Shown: positions 33,551 through 58,258, counted from the first letter of the stretch. The stretch: DNA of 64,000 nt from Microthyrium microscopicum (GCA_010405405.1 MU004231.1:1371784-1435783), one strand, 5' to 3'. Program-made: numbers and translations. Notes: generated from the sequence alone by a model not told the origin.

Positions 33551-34012
33551 TATAGCTAATAATATAGTAGAAATAAGTACTAAAGTAAATAATATAGTAC
33601 TACTAAATAATATACTAATAAATACTATATAAGAAAGAGTATACAAAGTAGCTAAAAGAGAGAGTATAGTTAAAAGAATAAAATAACTATTTCGTTATTA
33701 TAAGAATAATTATAGTAAAATATATAAGTAAGTAAATAGGGCGTATAGTTAAGTTAATCTTTATAGTAGTATACTATATTACTAATAGTTAGAAAAATTA
33801 CTAAAAAATAACTAGTAAGTAGTATAAGTAATTAAAAAGTAATAAATACTAATTAAATAATAAAATTAAATATAATAAGAAAGATCTTGCGTATAAAAAA
33901 TATAGATAAAACTAAGAATAAGCTAAAATAGATATAATATATAGCGTATAAGTCTTTCTTAGACTCTTAAGGAAGAATTAGGTTAATAGAGTATAATTAG
34001 TAGGTTTAAGGG

Positions 34013-34075
34013 GTTAAACGTTTTTAAAAGTTAACTAACCTAATAGGGTTAGTTAACGTTTGACAAACGTTTAAC
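34013..34075. repeat. 63-bp hairpin (28/29-bp near-perfect inverted arms, 6-nt loop) at the AT/GC boundary
   Basis: gttaaacgtttttaaaagttaactaacc-taatag-ggttagttaacgtttgacaaacgtttaac; the outer 11 bp and inner 11 bp of the arms are perfectly complementary. Confidence 0.85.
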
Positions 34076-34733
34076 TTCTTCCCGTAGAGAGTCTGAGTCC
34101 ACTGAGATAAATTCTTAGCCTTGCAACGTCATGAATCAGCCCAATTGGCCAATCAGCATTTCGAGCAAGAAAGAACAAAACTCGAGATTAGACAAAATGA
34201 ATGGCGCGCTCCCAGCGAGTGCGATGGCTCCCGTACGAAGCGATCTGGTATCGAGTGCTTTATTTACCATTGAGCGCCTTCAGATTTGGACATTTTGTAT
34301 CATGCGATGGGAAATATACTACCTTTTGATTAATAGCGTTCGTGTGGGAGCCATCGACGCTGATGGGAGAACGTTAGTTATTATGTCCATCGGATGATAT
34401 GTTAGAGACATGGGATGTGATGTATACACAGTCGATGCTGCAGGCTGGCATTATTTATCATGATGGCGAGACAAGCCTAATACATACAGCCCATAATCCT
34501 TTCCTTTCCATGCAATACGTAGGTACCCAGCGTAACAGCGCCTAAAAAAAGGAATATAATATATATCCATATGCATGCTATACGTAGCACCACCATGATC
34601 TCGTACGCCGAACCATATCATCATGCCATCCGATCCAATCCCATGTCCAGCGTCCGAAATATGCCCATTCATGCCCAACCCATATCATCATACACATACC
34701 GAGCCAAACCGCCAGAATCCATTCAAGGGTTCT

Positions 34734-36295
<1,562 letters not shown>

Positions 36296-37160
36296 GGCGG
36301 GCGGACGGCAGGCTGGTGGTCGCTCTGCCGAGAGCGATTGGAATGGAAACGAGGAGGATGAGGATGAGTAGTACGATGGTCAGGCTGTTTGATGGTGCGA
36401 TGTGAAATAAGTGGTTGGAGTGGTGTGGTAGATTGTTGGGATCGAGTGGAGGATGAAGTAGAATGGTCAGATGGATCTGGAATCTGGATGATTTGCGGCT
36501 CTGATTGTGGACCGTGGTAAGGTGGATAGGTTGACGGGTTATTGGGAAACTATGTCATGGTACCAGGCTAGACTGGCAAGACTGCGAGACTTAGACTGGG
36601 CAGCAGTTGTTGCCGAGGGTTGTTTGGTACCAAGTACCAAGTACCAAGTTACAAGTACTACTAACTTAGAGGCTGTGGAACCGCCAGACTGCGACTGGTC
36701 GTGTGTAATAATGCTAGGTAGGCTTGTTTGAATGTGACAGCACGGGTCAAGTCACTATTCAAGGACGGCCAATTTGAGTCAGGAGTAGTCGAGAGTAGGA
36801 GATTGATGGGGAAAGGAGCAAATTGAATAGCAACCAAGCACGAATTGTCCACCCAATATGCAAGATTTCATAGAAGTTCTAGAAAGCAGTTTCTACACAA
36901 TAATCTGACGGATGAATGAGGGAAAGAGTGGGGTGGAGTTCTAGAAAAAGCAACCACCAGTCATGACTGCTGAGTACTCGACATCAAACAACCATTTTCG
37001 AAGTAACATCATCAAAACTGTTACACCTATTCTCAAGATCTGAAGCACCCACAAGTAAAACATAATCCCAGCGAGCGACAATCCTGGTCCTCGTGGATCC
37101 ACGGTCCACCAGTCGAGTTTCGGACTTTTCCACTCCACGTGCCCGATCCACGCTTAGATC

Positions 37161-46300: not shown

Positions 46301-47851
46301 AAAGAAATAATTCTTATAATATATTTAATAATCCTTAAAGTAGTAGTTTAAATTAAAAATAATTTAAGACATTTTTTAGGATATATTATATATATATATA
46401 TAAATCTTGTTTATTATTTTTTAGCTATACTAATAGGCTATACAGACGTTACTCTTAATAAGTAAATAAAAACCCTTATTTAATTAGCTAATCTACCTAA
46501 ATCTAGCTAAGCTAGCTTACTCTAAGCCTAAGGCCTAGTCTAGCTTTAGCTAACCCCTATATATTTAGTAAACTAAGGCGCTAACTATATAAGAGAAAAC
46601 CCTACTATTATATTCTATATACTAATTTATACTAAGGCTAATAATATACTCTACTAAGCTTTATTAACCTCCTAAGCTATAGAAGCTTTAGTAGATTAAG
46701 AATAGCTAAATTCTAAGGAATATCTAGCCTATTAGCACTTCTTTAAGCATATTATTTATTATAGGGAAGTATATTCTTCTAATTAGTCTACTACTTTAAG
46801 TTTTTAAAGTTACTAATATTATTATCTCTAAGGGGCTAAGATTCTTTCCTTATTATTATATTAAATTCCTCTATTTATGCTATAATACTAAGTCTAAGAT
46901 AGCGCTAATAGTCTACTAAGAGCTATCTATTTACGCTATGCTTTACTTTTAAGCTAAGATCTAAGTCCTTTAGCTTAGTATATTTTAAGTTACTTTCCTT
47001 AAGTCTACTAGCTTATTTCTATAGCGCTATATTTGTACTAACCTAAGAGTACTATACTTACTAAGCTATAGTGTTTTAGATCCTATAATTTACTATTGTA
47101 TTATTTAGTTTAATCTTTACCTTAACTAATTATAGCTAGATTTTAGGCTTATTAAGCTAAGGCTACTCCTTTAATTTAATTACTAAGAGCTATAAAAAAA
47201 TTAGCTTTAGTATACTAAATTTACTACGCTTTAGTAATATTATAGCTTTATTTATATATAGCTTTACGTACTATATAGCTAGTAGCTAGTTTTTAATTAT
47301 ATAATTTTTAATGCTAGTCTATTATTATTAGTAAGGCTTTAATAAGAATAATCTTGTAACTATATATAGTAGTTACGTAATATAAAAATTTATACTTTTT
47401 ATAATATATTAAAAAGAGCTATAGCTTATTCTTTATACTTACTAAAAAGGGAAGGTAAACCTTTCCTAAAAAGGGGTAATTATAGCTTTAAAAGCAAGGA
47501 ATAATTACCTTTTTAGAGTAGTAAGGAAGATAGGAATTAAACCTATGCCCTATAGATTCTTAAGCAGGTAGGGCCTACTACAAGATTGTAAGTACTACTA
47601 CTATACTACTTCCCCTAGGATATATTATAGTAAGGAATATTATTATATATAAATCTTAAGAATCGTTTTCTAATATATAGTTACTAGGTATTAGGCTATA
47701 ATAAGGCTAGCTAATTAAGGAATAATATTCTTAGAGTATATTCTACTAGATGTTAATCCTAAGTAATTATTAATAATAAGGTAAATCTAGGGATTTCTAT
47801 AAGAGGTCTATTATTTAGAGGTTCTAATTAAATTAAATTATTACTACTAGA

Positions 47852-48003
47852 TATTATAAGAATATAAGAAATAAAGCGTAGTTAATTACTATAAGAGTCT
47901 AAGGGCCTAATATAGTTTTTAGGACACGCTAATTAGGGGATTATGTCATCCCTGATCAGGTCCTACGATTATCTAATCCCTTGGCATGTTCTTCATCACA
48001 ACA
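47852..48003. repeat. LTR (5' LTR relative to the minus-strand pol)
   Basis: Ends ...cccttggcatgttcttcatcacaaca, followed by ggatc (48004-48008), matching agatc (37156-37160). Confidence 0.93.
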
Positions 48004-48406
48004 GGATCCCGCCGTTATTCAGGTTCCATCAAAATGAGAAGCATTGCCCATGTCATTACCCATCATGTCCTGTTGATACGGCACTCTTCGTCGAGAATAT
48101 CTTGAGTTCTGATGCCTCATGGTAAAGCTGCTTTTGTAAGTTGCATCTCACGCGTTTTGAGTTTGTCTTGCGGTCAGCATATCGTATATCGTTCTGCATG
48201 CAATACCAGGCGACTTTTATGTCTCGCAGCTGAGAGGCAGTTACGGTTGTCTAAAACGTATGTATAGTTGTGGACGTCGCCACGAGATGAAGATTACCAA
48301 GGCGCCTTTTTCCATCCATTCCTTTTAGCTGGGGGTATTCGCAGTAAGCCACCTGAAAACACCAACTCCTAAAACCCTCAAGGAAAACAGCATATAAACG
48401 TACTTC

Positions 48407-51400
48407 TCATCTGCCATAGTGCCCGTGTAAAGACAAGTCGACACCTTTTTCGAATCGTGGATCAGTCTGGTAATCTAGTGTAGGTCGCTGGGGAATTGAA
48501 GATATAGGAAACGGCGATGGGTTTCTGGGAGTGAGTGCCTGAGCTGGCAATTCAGGAACACCGTTTTGGTTGTCGGCCCATTTGTTGATGGATCCCAGCA
48601 TCACCTTCCACATATTGCCGCCTACACGGACTCCTCGGTGCGTGAAGGTCTCGAAAGGTTCATTGTCCACGATGTCGAACGCAATCTTTTCGTACTTCTT
48701 CAAGTCATCCCAGCGGTCTAGTCGCACGTAGACTTTGGCATCATCGCCGAGTTGGACAAATTGAATGCCAAATTGTGTATCAGGCAGTCCAGCGGTGTGG
48801 AGTGCTGCGACTAAATCACGAATATAGTCTGTAATGTCATCGTTGCCTTCAGGTTGCCAGGCATTGCCGTCTGTCAGCACGTAGAGAATTGTCTTCTTCG
48901 GCTTTGTTCGAAACACGCGGCTAGTGGAATAGTCTTGAACTCGAGTACGATAGTCGTTCAAGAACTCTCCTATGGTCCCTCTCAAATTGGTGAATCGCTT
49001 GCCAGGAATGAGCGATGGGTTATTCCTTTCAATTTCGGTTACCAAAGCGGTAATGTGGGTGAAAGTTGTTCTCGATCTCCATGAAAATCTCTTTTGTCGA
49101 GAAGAGTCGATGGTAAACCGAAGATCTATGCCATCATCATCAAAGCCTTTGGGCATGTACCCAATGTTCTTGCCAAAAGTGATCACTTTATCCCAGTGGC
49201 TGGTCATAGTGTGAGAACTATCAATGAAAAATATCTAAGCAAGTGTTAGCCGACATAACTGATTGAACTGCGCCCCAGTCTGGTACTGACGAAATCGCGC
49301 TTGTCTAATTCAGGGTGCCATTGCTTGTCCAAACCAGTTCGTTCGTCCCTCCAGCCCTTTATTTCATCTATCGTCCAGAATGGCACAGGGGCTGCCTGGG
49401 CTGCCTGGGCTGCAGGCACAGAGTGGACGTCTGTTAAAGTTGCCTTTCTCGTGCAAGGTACCTTGTCCCTAGTATCAACTTGCTTTTCTGAGCATGATAG
49501 GCCTGGCTGGCCTGTAGGCTTGACTTGAGGGGATATTGGGACAGCTCTTGGCTCTCCATTGAAGGGAGAGGCGGGTGAGATCACAGGCCTCTTACTGAAG
49601 GATATGCTATGACGAAGCCCTTGGTGTGCTTGATCGTGAACTCCATAAGTGTTGTCAGCACTGCTACTTGCGGCTTGGGAGTAGTGTGTGTCTGTATCTG
49701 TGAATGCTGTGTTTATGGATGTTCCTGAGTTTCGACGTAGTTTTAACGACAGTCTGTTGTCGTTGCCATGATGGTCTAGACCTCCGGGACTAGCCGAGAG
49801 AATTGGGCTGGGTTCAGTCCCTTCTAGAGTTCTGAAAGGCGGTGAGTAAGGTATGAAGCTTCCAGTCGTTCTCACACCAGTCGGGTCACTAGCAACTCGG
49901 CCCTGCAGGGCGGGCTGACCATCTACAAGAGGATATGCTGGAGCGGGTAGGCTTTGTGTCATTCCGGCTTCTGCTTTGTCTAGAAATTTCTGAATCATTA
50001 TCCATGCCGGATGGTGGTAGAAACGCTCGTCGAAGTTACTAAGCATAAAGGGTATTATATCGTCCAACACTTTCCGGGTGATAACATCGTTCTTCTTCAG
50101 GTGGTTCTCTATCAGACATTGGTGATGGCGGTGAACGTACGGAAGGACATCCGTGCCATCGTGGAAGCTGTCTGGGTCACCAAACGCATGATCTTGGCGA
50201 CTTTGGATCCTTTGATTTTCATATGCTGTAATACCGGCTTGACCTTTAAGCACCCAGGTCGCAGCAAGCGACATAATGGCACCAAATGACCAGACATCGG
50301 CCTTTGGTGATATTCGAAGATCAGTCCGGAGGGCAATAGGAATCTCAGGATTGTAATGTTCAGGCGGACCTAAATTACCTGGTTAGCAGATATGTAAACA
50401 CAATGATTCTCAAAGGGCACATACCGAATGTTCGGCTTCCGTTAGGATAGGAGTTGCGAAGGTGATGACCATCACTGGACATTGCTTAAGCGCGACAAAG
50501 ACCTAGGTCTCCTAGTTTGGACGAGTAGCTATATGGATTGTGGCTTCTACCTTTGACGACCAGTATGTTGCGTGGGGTCACGTCTGAATGTACGCTACGT
50601 TTCTTAGTAACTGTCTGAGGTTTTACGTTCGGCCTACATGAGGACTTACCGATGAATTTCATTCCCATTTGTAGAGGGAATTGATCGATCTGTGTTGCTG
50701 ATCTTGTTGAGGGCGCGTGGTATCTGTAATAAACTTCTCCAGAATATGAAAACATCGGCATAGGTTTGAGGGGGTGTAGTGGTTCTGAAGTAATCTTCTA
50801 GAGTCCCTCCATCTGCGTATTCGAGAATGATGTTGAATGTCTGATCATGCTGAAAACTACCGTGATAGCGAATGATGTTGGGATCGACTCTGGTTTGGTT
50901 GTTTCTAAGGGCAATATGTGACTCGTTTTCCAAGCGGAAAGCATTTTGATCTTCTACCTTGAAAGACTTCAAGACATATAGATGAAGACTTTCAGCAGGC
51001 TGGTTGTCAAGCCGATCATAGGCAGGATGAATCTCGATAAGATATGTCGTTCCGAAGCCACCGCAACTCAGCTGCTTTACACAGCGGAATGGTAGGATGC
51101 GCCGAGCGTCAAACGTTAATTCGCGATGATAATCGATTTCGGGAGGACAGAACTTCCATTGCATATCCTGGAAATCGCGCCAAAATTGTGGGGGAAAGTG
51201 TTAAGGACATGATCCGTCGAAAGGTAGATTTGCATCCGCCAGGTTAGGATGTTTGAGAAAATGCTTAATCCAGCTACCCTTATTGATACAAAGCAAGATA
51301 GAAAAGATCTTGATAGAGCCAGCACTAATTTCCTTTAAAGCCACGGGGTCTTGATTATCGTTGTTACGGAATACTGCGTCGACAATTCTGCGAAGGTTAT

Positions 51401-51590
51401 GGGTTTCAAAGAAGGATCTGAGGGCATTGATTGGCACGTATAAAGCGTCTTGGTCAGCTACAGTTGACCACTCGTCTTGACTGGGTCGTATTCCTTGCTC
51501 CTGGTGACTGTCGATGAATTCTTGAAACTCATATAGGGCTTCGTGAAAGGGAGCTTCCTCACCAGGTGCGTACGAGTCCAAATCTTGCAT
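48407..51590 (-). pseudogene. Ser/Thr protein kinase - vWA-domain fusion (~1005 codons; exons 51590-50650, 50594-50425, 50369-49291, 49234-48407) with two in-frame TAA stops (51203-51201, 50488-50486)
   Basis: Kinase motifs GGFGTTY, YVLKSF, IILEYADGGTL, VHSDVTPRNILV, KLGDLGL, GSRTFGPPE and KADVWSFG. C-terminal vWA motifs IFFIDSSHTM, DDDGIDLRF, YVLTDG and FGIQFVQLGDD. The frame continues unchanged through both TAA codons. Confidence 0.85.
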
Positions 51591-52367
51591 CGTGAACTGA
51601 GAGAAACCGATGATTGTTCCTGGCAAATCGCGAAAGCCAGACAAGAAGACAGCTCTTGGATGACAGGTTAAGCGAAGATGGTAAGAGTAGAAGTAAAACA
51701 ATACTCTAACGTCCACGAAGTCGAAAGAACGGCATGTCAAGTAGGACGAGGACGCGGGAAAGATAATCCTTGCAAGGACAATAAACGTTGTATAAGGTAG
51801 GCTGGAAAAAAAGGTGAGGCGGATGGGAACTTGGGATGCAAACTAAGGAATCCCAACAAGGTCTGGGGCTGAAGCAATAGGCTTTCATACATACGTTGCG
51901 GGAAAGAACTTGGAAGATAGCTCAAGACCGACAAAATAGACCGATTGGCTTTCGCTCTTGGTGCTTGGTGCTCTGCCTTACCAGACACTGCCACTTCTTC
52001 AGAGGGCAGATTGATCAAGCTGCATAAGTGAGATAGCAAAAGGCGGCTCTATTCTGCAGGACTACCATTCAAAGGCACTCGATGTCCTCAAGTAGCTACT
52101 TTGTCATGTAGCGATTTCATCAGGCTGAGGCTGAGGCCGGGGCCGGAGGCCGGTCAGGCAGACTAAATGTATTGAGATATGTCTTCCGAAAGGTGTGGTG
52201 GGCTGAGCGACTAGGACAATATGCCTCGTTCATCAGAACCGCACGCAACCAAAAGCAACTATACTTGACAGATTCTAAATAGTCTAATGTACGTGGCGTT
52301 ATACCGAACAATGGAAAGATTTGAGCCGGAAATGTGAACTGAATCGCTGTAATATGGCGTATTCTTG

Positions 52368-54402
52368 CTATTGGCCAGACTGATTGTTCTGCCGACGCTG
52401 CTGTAGCCTCCTCTGTTCAATACAATGCGATACATATGACAGAGGAAAAGTTATAAACGTGATGGGAGCCGAGATTGCGAAGAACGTCCCTAAAGCCTGC
52501 CAGGTTCAAAGTAAGCCTTCAACCAAAAGAGTACTAAACACTTAAGTAGTAGAGAAGATGAAGAGGCAAAAACGCGTCACATACCTGAGGAACGAAAACC
52601 CTACGAGGTTTTCCAGAATCGGATGGCCATTGAACAATATCGGTACTCATTAGACTCTAGGAAGCGATTAGTCTTGTATCCTTGTTTCATGAGGAGAGAA
52701 TACTTACTGATATGAACGTGCTGGGTAGGAATAGAAGAGTAACTACAGTGATGATTCGCATGAAGATAGTTTCCTGTTCAGTTCTAAATGAAACATCTGA
52801 CATTTGCTGCGCCATGTATTTCATCTCGATGGCTGTTTTGTGGCTTTCAATCGCCGTTTTCTGAGCCTCTTTGCCTAGGAACAGGTTGAGAGTCATGTTA
52901 GTGTGCTCCACGACACAGAGCAAAAGCTCCTTACGTTCTTTTAACAGCTGATGCAAGGCAGTAGCTCTCGACTCTAGCATTGCAAGATCTGAGATGGCGT
53001 TATCAGAGTGCTCGGCGAATTCAGTGACTGCGTCCTCGCAGTCCTGTTTTAGCTTGTCGGGCAGGTCCTTTTTTTTTATCAGACTCTGATAGTACTTTGA
53101 GATTTTCTCCAGAATATGTTTGTTCATTCCTAGTACAAAAATGACTTCATTTACCTTCTCCACTAAGTGTTGAACCCTTTGTAGATCTTTCAATGAAAAC
53201 TTGGTGTTGAAATTGCTTTCAAAGTCTTTTGATTCGTGGAGAGATAGCAACGGTACTGCTTGATCAGTTGAGGGAAGAACTGGACGACTTGATCTGAGGC
53301 CGAATCCCGTTGAGCGGTGGGCTAGCCTTGAAAGCCGTCCAGTATCTTGCCGCTGAAGGGAAGAGAATGTCAAAGACCTCTGAAACTTTGAAAGTAAGAC
53401 CTCTCGATCGCTAGTTGGAGCCTCCATCTCGGCAACCGTAGCGTCCGACGTTGCTTCTTGAGTAATTTCTTCCAGATGCTCGAGGTACCTCCTCCAACCC
53501 TCGGTACACCACTCATGAATCACTTGGTGCTGCATCATAGACGCCTGAAAAGCAGACTCAACAGTGTCCAAATTTGTAAATTTGAAGCCCCTGTTTCCAC
53601 TGGCAGTCTCCTGTATGCGCTTTCTTAATAGGCTGTTCGCTTTGATTATGATCCAGACAGCTCGGCCAAATTTCACATCAAAGGAGTGATAGACGGCTGC
53701 TTGGCGTATGGACCATGGAGAGCCATGGGCTGTTTTCTTGAACTCAACAGATCGAAGATTATAACACATTTGTATTTGAAGTCCAGAACGACCCAACTCG
53801 GGGATTTGCTGCTGAGCTAGGAAATTACTGAGACTGTTCTCAGCTCTGAAGCTGCTGAAATGGGCATCTTTGGCATTTTCCTGATCCCCAAAAGGAAACA
53901 AATGGTCCAGATATACTGGCATAACCTGATGATGTGACAACACAGATGTGAACATATCTCGAGTGACACTCAGGGGATCTCGCGAAGACCGGGCTTGAAA
54001 GAATCTGTATTAAAGTTTAGTGTTGATGTGACATTCTGAGATGTGATGGTTATTGATGGCCACGTACACTGCTCGATACAAGGGATCGCACTGTTCTTGT
54101 GAATCAGATCGCCTAAGGCGTTGTTGGAGTTGAGTATCGTTTTCGACTTGCAAGAAGCCCAAGCCTAAATACTGCATTTAGCAACGAAACTCACAAGATA
54201 CCCAGCTTCAGAGCGTACTAGGACATCCTCTCTCAAGCTCAAGGAGCCCAACATTCAACTTTCCATCTTGATCAAATAATCGCTCCTCTTCCTTGTTAAG
54301 TCGTTCAAAGTTTTCTTTCAAAAGATAGTCGCTTTGCCGTGGCGACACAAGCTCGAGAGGGTACTTCTTAGCACATAAGAACGACCTAGTGAAACAGTCC
54401 AT
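52368..54402 (-). CDS. Fungal CorA-like domain protein with two C-terminal TM helices (592 aa; exons 54402-54219, 54164-54068, 54004-52708, 52656-52585, 52496-52368)
   Basis: Motifs DPLYRAVFF..SRDPLSVTRDMF..HQVMPVYLDHLFPFG, CYNLRSVE, WSIRQAAVYHSFD..GRAVWIIIKAN, a long helical stalk, then ETIFMRIITVVTLLFLPSTFIS-SLMSTDI and a second hydrophobic helix. GT..AG introns keep the frame (1779 nt). Confidence 0.82.
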
Positions 54403-55586
54403 CTGTCAACCAAATTGAATAAGTCAGCTTGCAGTACGTGTATCAAGCTCTTCATGTCGTACTATGGATAGCTCATTCTTCGAACACTTCCCAGATGGTA
54501 TGGAACTATTGATATATCTTGAGCTTTACGAGAGATAATCTGTGAAGAAGGCGGGCAGTGCTGGCTCTGCCTACCTAAATCAGTCCTGTCGCCGCTTGAC
54601 CGGTCCACTCAGATTAGCCTGCGACAACAGAAGCTGCGGATGAAAATTGAAGTCAAAATTCAATACACCTGAGTAAATTCGCCTCAATTACGAATCCCAG
54701 AGAGGAGGGGTTAGGAGCATGTCCAAAAGTGCCATTATAATACCTCACAACAACGTTGCAACCACCATATCCTACAGGTATGCTCTGCCCAAGTGGCATT
54801 TTCCAAGGAGCTTTAGGCTCTCAATGCGTGACATGCGAGGCGAATTAGGTATATACAGCCGACTTACGTGTAAATCAAGAAAAGCCGATTGTCTTCCCCC
54901 GTTGGCAAGGCGGACGCCCGCATCGTCCTCGCTGGATTTTCTATCAGGCTGAGCCCTTCGAAGGCAAATTTCACCTACCCAACGGTGGCCTTGCCACTTC
55001 CAAGGGCATGGGAAGCTTCTGTAATCGTGAAGGACGCTAAACAACGGCTTTTAGTCCAATCAGTTGATATTATCGAAGCCTTGAGGCTCAATTAGCTTCA
55101 AAAAATGGCTTCCAAGACATACGAAATATGTCAGTCAGCTACCAAGGCTGGACAGCTTTTCTCATACACTCAAGAGTGGACCAATTGTCGAGAATATGTC
55201 TTCCTATCTGTTAGTATTGCGTCTATTGGAGACTCTGTAGCGATGACTTGGCTTCCTGTAGCTGGAGAAGGAGACGCAATGCAAGCGGAGTTCAGACCAC
55301 TTTATAGGGCTCCGCGAGGTTTTCTCTAAGACTGCAGTCCGTTGGTCACAGTTTCTCAAGAAGTTGCTTTGGGTAGTATTGGCATTGGCGCCTAGACTAC
55401 AGTCAACGTCGTAGTTCCCCTCCACCTACACCAGAGTAGAGTAGATTTGGTTCGTCAGGCATCCTAGGTTGTAGTCGGCACGCTCGAACGCAAATCCAAC
55501 TGTGTGTGATGGAAGAACCCGCATGCCCATTATTCTTCCATGGCGAAGCTGCTTTTTCCACAGTTCCAAGCTCATCAGCTTCAAAA

Positions 55587-55914
55587 CTAGTCGCTGTCAT
55601 GCTCCCGTACTCTGAGCTTTCTGAGCTTTTTTCGTTGAGCCTAAGGGTAGTACTTAAATTGTGAAATGGTGTTGGTCAATGTCGTACTTACACTGTCTAA
55701 TTTGGCTGGTATTTTGAAGCAATAATGATCCGCAAGGAACTGTCCGAGTAAGAAGACTGCCAGCAATATACCTTGGTACTCAGTGAGGGTCGCTTACATG
55801 TACCTTGAAATCCGACGCGCCGTAATCAGGCCATTCTTCTTGTAGAAAACCCTCAACAATTTGTTGCGTCAAATCGTAATGTTCCACTTTGTCATCCACA
55901 AAAGCGTCCGTCAT
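55587..55914 (-). CDS. Small 72-aa hypothetical protein, 3 exons (55914-55798, 55739-55692, 55640-55587); absent from the ORF track
   Basis: ATG plus two phase-0 introns (58 nt GTAAGC..CAG; 51 nt GTAAGT..TAG) give MTDAFVDDKVEHYDLTQQIVEGFLQEEWPDYGASDFKVH-FLADHYCFKIPAKLDS-AQRKKLRKLRVREHDSD*. Confidence 0.68.
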
Positions 55915-56781
55915 AGTTGCGCTGTAGTTTATGGATTCAATCCTATAACAGATAAGCTCCGAGGTAACTTGCCAAGAGCTGGGGTCGTATCAGAGCTCGT
56001 GCGATTTCGATGACCTACGTTAGTGTGCAGAAGCGGCTAATAGGACATGAAGGCAGAAAAGGCAGGCCGAGACGGATTTGCAGGTTCGCGAACAAAGCTG
56101 AGAAAGGGCGTAAGATGCTAAATCACTGAAGACGCCCCAAGTGAGTGAAAGCGAAGAGATGGAAAAGCCACTGTTCTTTCCATCAGTCGCATGATTTGGT
56201 TGCCTTGTTTGGAGCGTGCTTGGTCATTTGACGACGGAGAGAGCCTTCAAATCTTTGGCAGACCGAGGAGCATGGCTGACATCGATTTGATTGCAGGCCA
56301 GCCTTGCTGGACGGGAACACTCGGCTACGAGGGTAGGAAAATGATCGAATCCTGTTTGAGACGGGGAATCTACTTCGTTGCTTCCACCTGCTGGATACTG
56401 TAGCAGTAATAGAAAGGCAATCGAAGGATGTGAAGCTATACAGCGCATATAAAGAGGAAGTGACCTCATTTGAGGGGTCTATACCCTTACATGCTGTACG
56501 GTCGAAAGGAGCCCCAAAGGCCCCCCGGCTTTAGCAGCCCTGGCATCAAGATACCATGTTAAACTGGACATTGGATCGAAGCGCCTCACTGCATAGCATG
56601 AAAGAGGCAGACTGATCGCGAATGATAATGCAAGTAGTCATGATTTCATCATGTACAGCGCTCAGTGCCCCAACTGCTGAATTTAGCAGAGCCTCATTGT
56701 GTGACGGCGCAAATAGGCAAAACAGCGCAAGAGTCTATCTGATAATCTTGATTTTGATATTAGTACAAGTTCGCACACCCT

Positions 56782-57588
56782 TTATGCTGATGCTCGGGTA
56801 TTTAGGATCAAAGCCACAATCAACCTGTAGATGTTAGCCAAGCGTCCGCGTCGAAAGGCAAATTTGGGATAGCAAACCCATAAAGTCCTAGGACTTCGGC
56901 AAAAATAAGAATCAAAACCATTCCTACGAAAATCCTTGATTGTTGCATGTATGACCGTACTCCCTATCACCGTATTAGCACCGCCCATAATGTGGTGATC
57001 TGCGATCATACCATATCTCCCACGATTCCTATCGCATATCCAGCTGCCAGACCAGAGAGGCCCACTGACATGCCCGCGGCTAGATGTAAGAAGGCATTGA
57101 ATAGAGGATATGTTTCATCTGGTTTGATGCTTCCCGCGACGAGAACGGATATAACGAGGGCGTAAACGGCAATAATACCAGACATGACGACAGGAATGAG
57201 GGACTATAGCAGAGTAAGATTGTGTTTACGATCAAATCTCGGGATCAACTACCTTCATGATCAGGTCAGGTCTGTATGTACCAATACCAGCGATACCAAT
57301 TCCAGACTTGGCGGTTCCGAAGGCGGCTCCCAGACCTTTGCGATGTTAGTGAAGGAGCTAGAAAGCAATCGTGAAGGGATCAACTGACATCCGAATATCA
57401 TCTATGCGTGGAAAGGCGGTTAGCAAAGCTACTGAAAGCTAGATTGAAGTGATGAACATACTGCAAAGGCTATGCCACCCTATGAGATGTTAGTGATGAT
57501 GAACTTCATGCTGAGATATGATGATACTCACCATTCCGAAGAAGGGGGCGAACTTTGGGGAGAACTGGGATTCGAGAGCGGCGTCCAT
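56782..57588 (-). CDS. VMA11: V-type H+-ATPase proteolipid subunit c' (163 aa; exons 57588-57532, 57479-57462, 57401-57389, 57335-57253, 57203-57012, 56963-56878, 56824-56782)
   Basis: Spliced product [71 protein letters not shown]...[28 protein letters not shown], with the conserved TM4 Glu; missed by the ORF track because of micro-exons. Confidence 0.93.
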
Positions 57589-58258
57589 GATGGCACGATT
57601 GACGATGTATGAGCCGGTGCTGAGCGGGAGTAGCTAGAGTAGTGACCCGAGTGCAATAGCTCTGTTGGTGGTGATATCTCTTCTGGAGGTTGAAGCAAGG
57701 CGGAGCCGGAGATAGGCGCGAGCTTGCTAGGACGCTGAATAAGAATTCAACACAAAGTCTTGGCATGACTAGCGACGTATTAGCTGTATCAGAAGCACCA
57801 GCCAACCTTCCAACACCACTGCCATCTCGTCCTTCAATGTTCTTGCTCTTCATCAGCGCCTTACTCTGTCCCTTCAATACTTTCTAGCCTTGTTCAGCTA
57901 TCTCAATCTACGGCGTGCTTCTACTGCTTTTACCTTGTTCTTTCACGGCCGAATCGCTTCTCACTTCATCCGCGTTCCTCCTCTTTCTCGTCGCCGGGCC
58001 CTTCATACTGCTCCCTGCACGGCCCGATCCGCTGTTGAACATACTCAGTTGCTTGTCGTTGTTACTTCCTTGGTCAGCTTGCGTTTACAGCGTCGATAGT
58101 TGCAGCTCTCCGTTCTCGTCATCTCCGACTGCCAATCACTTTCGATCCGCTGCAAATATCCGACTGACTGCGGGCCAAACCCGCGGTATTCACCTGCTGA
58201 GGGTGCTTGTGCACTTGGATATATAGTTCCTGAGAGACTCTTGTTTTACCACAGCTAC
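57589..58258. promoter_or_regulatory. Divergent (head-to-head) intergenic/promoter region shared by VMA11 and ROM2
   Basis: ~670 bp between opposite start codons; pyrimidine-rich on + before ROM2. ttttaccacag just before the ROM2 ATG may be a 5'-UTR intron acceptor. Confidence 0.5.

Follow-up and report, generated by a model that had tools for sequence, protein, structure and literature searches.

A conserved three-gene cassette of Pezizomycotina encoding a microprotein, a CorA-like membrane protein and a kinase–vWA protein: a possible kinase-controlled pore

We analyzed a stretch of 64,000 nucleotides from the Dothideomycete Microthyrium microscopicum (GCA_010405405.1 MU004231.1:1371784-1435783), hereafter the window, in which three neighboring genes encode a microprotein, a CorA-like membrane protein and a protein with a Ser/Thr kinase domain followed by a von Willebrand factor A (vWA)-like domain. 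All three lie on the minus strand, at the coordinates (48407-55914) that an earlier note on this DNA had given for them, and their exons are listed in Table 1. Contigs of the run X5 supplied the splice joints. On this stretch they display 13 joints, 12 of which have CT..AC ends on the plus strand, in other words, GT..AG introns of minus-strand genes: the kinase–vWA gene and an adjacent V-ATPase gene each have three, the CorA-like gene has four and the microprotein gene has two. Because the contigs carry such joints, we took X5 to be derived from RNA, which would otherwise be a guess. From positions 48000 to 57600, the window does not differ by a single letter from X5, X1 or X3, where X1 and X3 may themselves be the source of the assembly.

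Table 1. Positions of the cassette genes and their parts in the window, counted from its first letter
Feature	Position	Strand	Evidence or remark
Microprotein gene, 72 aa	55587..55914	-	X5 joints and translation
Microprotein exons	55914-55798, 55739-55692, 55640-55587	-	stop included in the last exon
CorA-like gene (P0002, 592 aa; PF26616 and PF01544 precomputed)	52368..54402	-	X5 joints, translation, AlphaFold2/Foldseek
CorA-like exons	54402-54218, 54163-54068, 54004-52708, 52656-52584, 52495-52368	-	all four introns in X5
Spacer, CorA-like stop to kinase start	51591..52367	-	covered unbroken by a single X5 contig
N-domain–Ser/Thr kinase–linker–vWA gene, disrupted	48407..51590	-	three introns in X5
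Kinase–vWA exons	51590-50650, 50594-50423, 50367-49291, 49234-48407	-	X5
First in-frame TAA, codon 130	51201..51203	-	within conserved N-domain, right before conserved HFP...QW.FC block
Second in-frame TAA, codon 350	50486..50488	-	five residues past kinase DLG
vWA-like domain exon, 275 aa	48410..49234	-	structure model and Foldseek

We scanned metagenome contigs with a profile of 20 CorA-like relatives, taking 10 kb on each side of a match. The best 80 of 159 confirmed relatives were kept, these 80 loci were searched with pieces of the kinase–vWA proteins of the window and of Lepidopterella palustris, and grouping at a nucleotide identity of at least 95% reduced them to 54 non-redundant groups. 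A gene for the N-domain and kinase adjoined the CorA-like gene in 22 of the 23 loci with full 10-kb flanks on both sides (L048 had no such gene, and L055 had no vWA match). For the groups as a whole, the kinase gene was adjacent in 32 out of 54 (in tandem downstream in 23, divergent upstream in 8 and upstream in the same orientation in 1), absent in one (L048) having at least 5 kb upstream and at least 3 kb downstream, and beyond judgment in 21 groups with shorter DNA. The complete trio was found in 26 groups. We found no fourth conserved gene, as no flanking open reading frame (ORF) occurred in more than 4 of the 54 groups; the recurrent ones that we scanned, each in at most 4 groups, are ordinary genes for an alcohol dehydrogenase, a HET-domain protein and an amino-acid permease. 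The HET-domain ORF (E 2e-26; L059:14968-16971, minus strand) recurs in the flanks of three groups, including L035 and L042, and this recurrence may be due to chance because HET genes are very numerous in these fungi. No NLR domain (NACHT or NB-ARC) was detected in the three window proteins, and no conserved neighboring gene supplied one.

The same linkage was observed in named genomes. In L. palustris, consecutive accessions on one scaffold of 249,128 bp belong to the kinase–vWA protein (OCK86348.1) and the CorA-like protein (OCK86349.1), and versions of both are also found together on a 7,263-bp contig; in Lachnellula cervina, the CorA-like and kinase–vWA proteins share a contig of 39,220 bp. 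Because the set recurs in 26 groups and other flanking ORFs in at most 4 of 54, the arrangement goes far beyond what chance would give. Neighboring genes in eukaryotes usually have no relation to each other, a general fact and nothing more, and the explanation that these three are chance neighbors without a functional link is contradicted by their recurrence in 26-32 non-redundant groups with unrelated flanks and in the named genomes; we regard it as hardly credible. The earlier note had proposed that the three genes form a module and had considered the contrary case of homologues being unlinked elsewhere; we observed the opposite of the latter, and the module is strongly supported. Comparison of these sequences therefore strongly supports a conserved, co-inherited three-gene cassette of Pezizomycotina, with the kinase–vWA gene placed in tandem downstream or divergently upstream.

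The spliced CorA-like gene is identical, letter for letter, to P0002 (592 aa, BT63DRAFT_421197). Its relation to CorA is faint at the sequence level. The Pfam CorA profile scored below threshold on the main exon (E 0.016; 15.0 bits against a cut-off of 27), PF01544 was precomputed for 1 of 63 matches, P0002 alone, and a profile of the 20 relatives found no CorA and nothing else significant among PDB sequences. PF26616, named 'CorA-like transporter domain' in UniRef titles, was precomputed for 63/63 matches including P0002, and our local Pfam copy gave no PF26616 row. Since the sequence profiles of both the CorA-like and the vWA-like families were insignificant against the PDB, the folds were shown by models. 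The AlphaFold2 model made from the 20 relatives (pLDDT 73.9) has helices at residues 417-530 and 549-591, and every match listed by Foldseek against the PDB (ranks to 50) was Thermotoga maritima CorA (E 7e-8 to 3.5e-5, probability 1.00), with target-normalized TM values of 0.47-0.63 among the matches listed. The predicted structure displays the features of the CorA fold, that is, a cytosolic alpha/beta domain, a long stalk helix continuous with the first transmembrane helix (TM1) and a second, C-terminal transmembrane helix (TM2). A variable and poorly modeled insert of about 75 residues (residues 286-360) precedes the stalk.

The GMN motif of the CorA family is missing at the TM1 end in all 20 aligned members. 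At the corresponding outer end of TM1, the window protein has SLMSTD, the consensus of the 20 relatives is STxMSTDI and the family pattern is (T/S)xMSTD, and TM1 itself has a conserved sequence of the FLP.TF type. P0002 contains the tripeptide GMN only once, at a non-conserved site in the cytosolic stalk. The best relative other than the protein itself is 39% identical, relatives range from 28 to 45%, and the named ones all belong to Pezizomycotina. With MSTD in the place of GMN and a closest relative at 39%, this is not the conserved single-copy Mg2+ transporter that the earlier note had named as the outcome opposed to its proposal. By analogy with CorA, the protein may assemble into a pentamer or another oligomer.

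The reading frame of the kinase–vWA gene comprises 1005 codons. Its kinase part matches Pkinase on the first exon with E 1.7e-5 and 24.8 bits, against a threshold of 31.7 bits that 38 of 50 relatives pass. Because Pkinase is N-terminal to the vWA-like part in these 38 of the 50 relatives of at least 500 aa, the kinase–vWA fusion is a family trait; a disordered linker stands between the kinase and the vWA domain. The Lys of VAIK, the alpha-C Glu, the catalytic Asp and Asn, and DLG are kept across 29 aligned relatives, and by these motifs the family kinase is apparently active. A conserved, fungal-specific N-domain of about 165 aa, aligned in the same 29 relatives, spans the position of the first stop; in the Atlas, its fold was seen only in kinase clusters of Ascomycota.

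The vWA-like exon has 540 relatives among cluster representatives and no Pfam match up to E = 1. Its model (pLDDT 80.3) matched vWA and beta-I domains exclusively among the PDB matches that Foldseek listed (ranks to 50; E 1e-5 to 1.5e-3), including integrin beta subunits, RGLG1/2, CMG2/ANTXR, BON1, BatB and a Catenulispora vWA protein. A profile of the vWA-like alignment found nothing significant among PDB sequences, and of the 50 long relatives P0075 alone passed the Pfam vWA threshold (PF00092; 24.4 against 23.8 bits), with P0106 below the cut-off. The family consensus of the putative metal ion-dependent adhesion site (MIDAS) reads DDSxSM ... FT ... LTDG, and the window protein has D-S-S-H-T, in which the last Ser is replaced by Thr. 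Separately, one protein of 3799 aa (P0168) combines the vWA-like domain with NB-ARC, TPR, an NPHP3-type NTPase domain and ankyrin repeats and has no Pkinase match; this may reflect either the merging of gene models or a connection of vWA domains of this type with NLR-like proteins.

In M. microscopicum, the kinase–vWA gene is interrupted by two in-frame TAA codons, at 130 and 350 (Table 1). Both lie in exons retained by X5, the second in exon 50594-50423, and because the window is identical to X5, X1 and X3, they do not result from an error of assembly. In P0065 (823 aa; window 48407-51164), the public model, translation starts past the first stop, and a long intron removes the second stop together with the catalytic loop and DLG. 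X5 does not support this intron. As the stops are in retained exons and the intron is unsupported, the gene represents a transcribed null allele; provided that X5 is RNA, it is apparently still transcribed despite its two nonsense codons. Judged from its motifs, the window gene is a kinase by descent that is broken here, and the two nonsense codons make this cassette a kinase-null allele with intact microprotein and CorA-like genes.

The microprotein gene starts with an ATG at 55914, has introns at 55797-55740 and about 55691-55641, and ends with a stop at 55589-55587, so that the X5-spliced ORF (39+16+17 = 72 aa) has exactly the length of 72 aa stated in the earlier note. A profile of its first exon had matches in 36 of the 54 groups, located upstream of the CorA-like gene and co-oriented with it, corresponding to 33 of the 36 groups that have at least 1.2 kb of upstream DNA; the exceptions were L039/L056, L048 and L047/L068, the last with a weak match on the opposite strand only. 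The distance from the microprotein to the first CorA-like match was 556-1153 nt (median 769). An ATG was found at most 11 codons upstream of the exon-1 match in 33/36 cases, a second-exon motif, (N/T)D.Y.FW(I/V)PR.LT, followed 63-151 nt further on in 37/37 and ended at GT, and a short third exon with a tail of the AE..E(L/I)..LR type was recovered by a strict pattern in 10 loci. The gene accordingly has two conserved intron positions, three conserved peptide motifs and a conserved start, and its pooled pN/pS was 0.47 (10 independent pairs covering only about 44 codons). By this coding pattern, the microprotein is a real conserved coding gene, with 60-72 aa in the family. In every layout the microprotein precedes the CorA-like gene, and the kinase gene either follows the pair or diverges from the promoter side of the microprotein.

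A word-based search found no protein of 37-121 aa sharing words with the microprotein, which is absent from annotation in the database searched, so gene callers mostly miss it. Where it does appear in annotation, it is part of CorA-like models: the N-terminus of the L. palustris model (P0018) is 40% identical to the window microprotein over 50 aa (E 2e-6 in a set of 216 sequences), and that of the Melanomma pulvis-pyrius model P0013 likewise corresponds to the microprotein. Both models splice microprotein exons 1-2 in frame to the CorA-like body at the conserved site between ...HQ and VMP.FLDF, a junction that is either a propagated error or a genuine alternative isoform. Such junctions, which are in frame in the window too, would be expected if the microprotein were an upstream ORF or alternative 5' exons of the CorA-like gene, with exons 1-2 reaching the acceptor before VMP.FLDF and the cassette reduced to a two-gene unit, and the shared strand and the short distance of 556-1153 nt fit this explanation as well. 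However, the X5 contig splices exon 2 to the stop-ending exon 3, the long junction is found in no contig, conservation of the tail motif of exon 3 extends to 10 loci or more, and P0018 and P0013 may copy a single prediction error. X5 contigs also leave about 54357-54635 bare between the two genes according to depth bins, a contig gap that proves nothing. We therefore consider the two-gene explanation quite unlikely.

We also tried the possibility that the microprotein is a duplicate of the CorA-like N-terminus, which was rejected (hhalign probability 0.2%). Searches of the Atlas by features gave no usable match, and those by structure gave only leads for the microprotein, namely two Ascomycota clusters (75 and 101 aa) and a kinase cluster of 852 aa. 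A complex prediction for P0018 residues 1-50 (the L. palustris microprotein) with P0216 residues 1-295 (the CorA-like N-domain) scored 0.00, with alignments unused, and speaks neither for nor against binding.

Profile-guided alignments and trees of the CorA-like and kinase genes were computed for 23 loci and the window (24 in total). The patristic distances of the two genes were closely correlated (Mantel r 0.895; 0 out of 5000 permutations reached this value), and the trees displayed the same major clades with 15 of 21 bipartitions in common. The window copy forms the longest branch in both trees. Judged from these trees, the CorA-like and kinase genes diversified in concert amid changing surroundings. 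Several loci have data-set prefixes in common, and a genome may thus contain more than one cassette.

Decayed copies were observed in both families. In-frame stops interrupt the profile alignments of three kinase genes (L029, L076 and L078) and of CorA-like genes in three groups (L008/L009, L048 and L075), to which metagenome errors could contribute. For example, L029 (13400-13900) differs from the 95%-identical L028 (13413-13912) mostly by C-to-T and G-to-A changes, including CAG to TAG in the kinase N-domain, which looks like repeat-induced point mutation (RIP) acting on the L029 copy. In Podospora anserina S mat+, PODANS_5_8300 (P0218) is a 511-aa model without the N-domain and the vWA part; in the comparison with P0119, P0219 and P0220, sibling species had 1054-1055 aa and sequencing-run assemblies gave forms of 167, 588 and 1055 aa. 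PODANS_5_8300 may thus be polymorphic or broken in the model strain.

These patterns bear on a further explanation, in which the cassette is a selfish or mobile element of the toxin-antidote type, such as an addiction cassette or one resembling meiotic drive, with the CorA-like pore as the poison and the microprotein or kinase as the antidote; its genes would stay together because they spread jointly. Flanks that vary between loci, three gene orders, several copies from one data set, the near-identical locus pair with RIP-like changes including CAG to TAG, and the position of the window copy against a RIP-degraded block are all consistent with this idea. In contrast, the flanks contain no recurrent transposase, terminal repeat or other mobility gene, no second copy lies within the window, and the co-divergence of the trees is deep and orderly, and we accordingly regard such an element as very unlikely.

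The surroundings of the window copy are divided at 48 kb. Bases 1-48000 have about 20% GC, except for an island at 34-37 kb, and normal composition and genes prevail from 48 kb onward; the AT-rich block has RIP indices of 1.69 (TpA/ApT) and 0.03 ((CpA+TpG)/(ApC+GpT)). The origin of the two stops by RIP leaking from this block was unsupported, as the indices of the kinase–vWA gene are normal (0.69 and 1.24), although the sequence around both TAA codons would be compatible with a change from CAA. On the far flank of the trio, Pfam identified genes for a V-ATPase proteolipid, a ROM2-like RhoGEF (DEP-RhoGEF-PH-CNH) and SPT8, in agreement with the earlier note, which had placed a retrotransposon on the other side; we obtained no confirmation of the latter, and four ORFs of at least 120 aa scanned from the 34-37 kb island had no Pfam match. 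That island (34000-37000) is 3 kb of 46-50% GC within the 20%-GC block, with a GC skew of 0.32 at 36-37 kb. A tRNA match of 38.6 bits at 47522-47615 (minus strand) stands on the border of the RIP-degraded block and the gene island, and probably contains an intron since it spans 94 nt. A search of the window found no second copy of the cassette.

Several features of the contigs themselves were also observed. One X5 contig of 5961 nt (48000-54004) runs unbroken over the kinase–vWA gene, the 777-nt spacer and the CorA-like gene, and another of 2565 nt (54636-57203) contains the microprotein gene, about 950 nt past its stop and the V-ATPase gene. Such gene-spanning contigs could be overlapping or read-through transcripts, or assembly merging neighbors, and the one over the CorA-like and kinase–vWA genes does not show that the two share a single transcript. 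Unlike the clean introns elsewhere, one X5 joint on the 5' side of the V-ATPase gene (57335-57531) has CT..CA ends; it leaves out 195 nt, and 30 other letters separate its two sides. The run X6, which is DNA of another organism from another study, gave four contigs of 164-274 nt at 49957-56312 (depth 2.4-4.5; identity at least 99%).

From the observed folds, motifs, linkage and co-divergence, we infer the rest of a mechanism, its function included, in which the cassette encodes a kinase-controlled pore of the CorA type with a small accessory subunit. The CorA-like protein would form an oligomeric membrane pore or channel, pentameric by analogy, and the microprotein would be an accessory or inhibitory subunit of it. 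The kinase–vWA protein might dock through the MIDAS face of its vWA domain, and its kinase would then phosphorylate the cytosolic part of the CorA-like protein, for example, the variable loop at residues 286-360, and thereby open or close the pore. The output would be a regulated ion flux or membrane permeabilization, most likely in a setting of stress, non-self or cell death. The roles that the earlier note had assigned, with the vWA as sensor, the kinase as switch, the CorA-like protein as membrane effector and the microprotein as regulator or antidote, are likewise conjectural. Taken as a whole, from the cassette to its role, this statement is tentative, and we hold it with slightly less than even confidence.

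A number of observations weigh against it. The missing GMN motif speaks against classical Mg2+ transport without pointing to any other function. Only CorA-like sequences served as seeds for the loci, so that kinase–vWA genes without a CorA-like neighbor went uncounted; the well-flanked locus L048 stands alone, L039/L056 have no microprotein, and 12 of the 50 long relatives of the vWA part show no kinase. The breadth across species rests on sequence divergence and a few named proteins, and mirror trees are equally expected from shared species history. In the window itself, the kinase motifs are kept save for a Thr replacing the catalytic-loop Lys, and the MIDAS is of the form DxSxT rather than DxSxS.

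The same parts could also make up a housekeeping-type unit of ion homeostasis, in which the CorA-like protein transports divalent cations or other ions, the kinase tunes it to supply, the MIDAS is a metal sensor and the microprotein a chaperone, with no link to conflict or cell death. The CorA fold, a putative MIDAS motif of the metal-binding type, the apparent expression in ordinary culture conditions and the purifying selection on the microprotein are consistent with such a unit. However, GMN is absent in 20/20 aligned members, relatives are only 28-45% identical, divergence is fast, several cassettes come from the same data-set prefixes, nonsense-interrupted copies occur, and the kinase is dispensable in the M. 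microscopicum genome. For these reasons, we consider routine ion homeostasis unlikely and, for the kinase-controlled pore, lean to a setting of stress, non-self or cell death.

A more specific hypothesis is that the trio is an undescribed cassette of regulated cell death or innate immunity across Pezizomycotina, whose kinase–vWA protein senses a non-self or danger cue and switches on the CorA-fold pore, which the microprotein restrains or assembles; recurrent null alleles would then reflect an allorecognition or presence/absence immunity polymorphism, the kinase–vWA protein would be convergent with plant kinase–vWA resistance proteins, and the pore with CRISPR-associated CorA effectors. We regard this joint claim as possible, but rather doubtful. 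For allorecognition in particular, the nonsense-interrupted copies, the short model in P. anserina S and a CorA-domain candidate in Morchella are only hints.

If true, it would add a further conserved module to those of fungal cell death and immunity, with a new effector fold and a new sensor architecture, and would provide an example of a microprotein that gene callers miss or mis-fuse. Even as a kinase-gated ion channel, the cassette would give a function-linked context to the large family of 'hypothetical' PF26616 proteins and to a fungal kinase family with an N-domain. The cassette lends itself to direct tests, as both natural null alleles and a family member in the genetic model Podospora anserina are available. 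The analysis also exposes systematic annotation errors or doubtful gene models, namely a false intron that rescues the broken kinase here and a microprotein fused to the CorA-like model in two other genomes.

In the literature covered, with subscription journals and supplements outside its scope, we found no account of PF26616, of the P. anserina locus names or of a fungal combination of CorA-like protein, kinase and vWA, which agrees with the view of the earlier note that this combination has no functional description in fungi. The parts are known folds, and the literature covered contains no described counterpart at the level of the system. Fungal modules of cell death and immunity to date comprise NLRs with HeLo or HET domains, gasdermin with a protease, and patatin with SEC9. 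With the CorA/Mrs2/Alr1 Mg2+ channels (PF01544; 4i0u, 3jcf, 8tmi), the CorA-like protein shares the fold, that is, an N-terminal alpha/beta domain, a very long stalk helix into TM1 and a C-terminal TM2. It differs from them in having (T/S)xMSTD for GMN, a variable insert of about 75 residues and a sub-threshold Pfam score, and the PF26616 family is fast-evolving and linked to kinase–vWA and microprotein genes. In the CorA-family effectors of some type III CRISPR systems, the CorA fold serves as a switched membrane effector and not as an Mg2+ importer. These effectors are prokaryotic, activated by nucleotide second messengers and encoded beside CRISPR genes; they provide the functional analogy behind the cell-death hypothesis, and their likeness to the CorA-like protein may extend no further than the shared fold. 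No CRISPR-type partner is present here. Bacterial loci that combine a vWA protein and a Ser/Thr kinase, in part with a PP2C phosphatase, such as yegI-yegK-yegL and the TerY-type triads, occur in stress or conflict contexts, and by analogy they resemble the fungal protein in pairing a MIDAS vWA with a eukaryote-type Ser/Thr kinase. In the bacterial loci, the domains are separate proteins accompanied by a phosphatase. The fungal protein combines both domains and has a CorA-fold membrane protein as its partner, and the flanks of the cassette contain no conserved phosphatase.

Among eukaryotic systems, mimpvic32 of Morchella importuna contains a CorA-like domain (PF01544), is highly polymorphic between incompatible parents and, in the account available, was proposed to be related to incompatibility (PMC8940278). 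It encodes 765-773 aa with 8 introns in a Pezizomycete and is described there as a mapping candidate only (PMC8940278); that account mentions no kinase–vWA or microprotein neighbor, and the likeness is at the level of PF01544. The kinase fusion proteins with vWA of wheat and its relatives (WTK6-vWA) are described as a class of innate-immunity receptors, in which, as here, a kinase is fused to a C-terminal vWA domain in a cytosolic protein (PMC11297308). They are plant tandem kinases and, as far as the source describes them, are without the fungal N-domain, a linked CorA-like gene and a microprotein; common descent of WTK6-vWA and the fungal kinase–vWA protein is unlikely. MLKL is a four-helix-bundle pseudokinase unlike the CorA fold, and RIPK3–MLKL is not known to involve a vWA domain, a microprotein or gene linkage. 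In RIPK3–MLKL necroptosis, however, phosphorylation by a kinase is reported to precede the formation of a membrane cation channel by the phosphorylated protein (PMC12881547), which is the logic that we propose for the kinase-controlled CorA-type pore.

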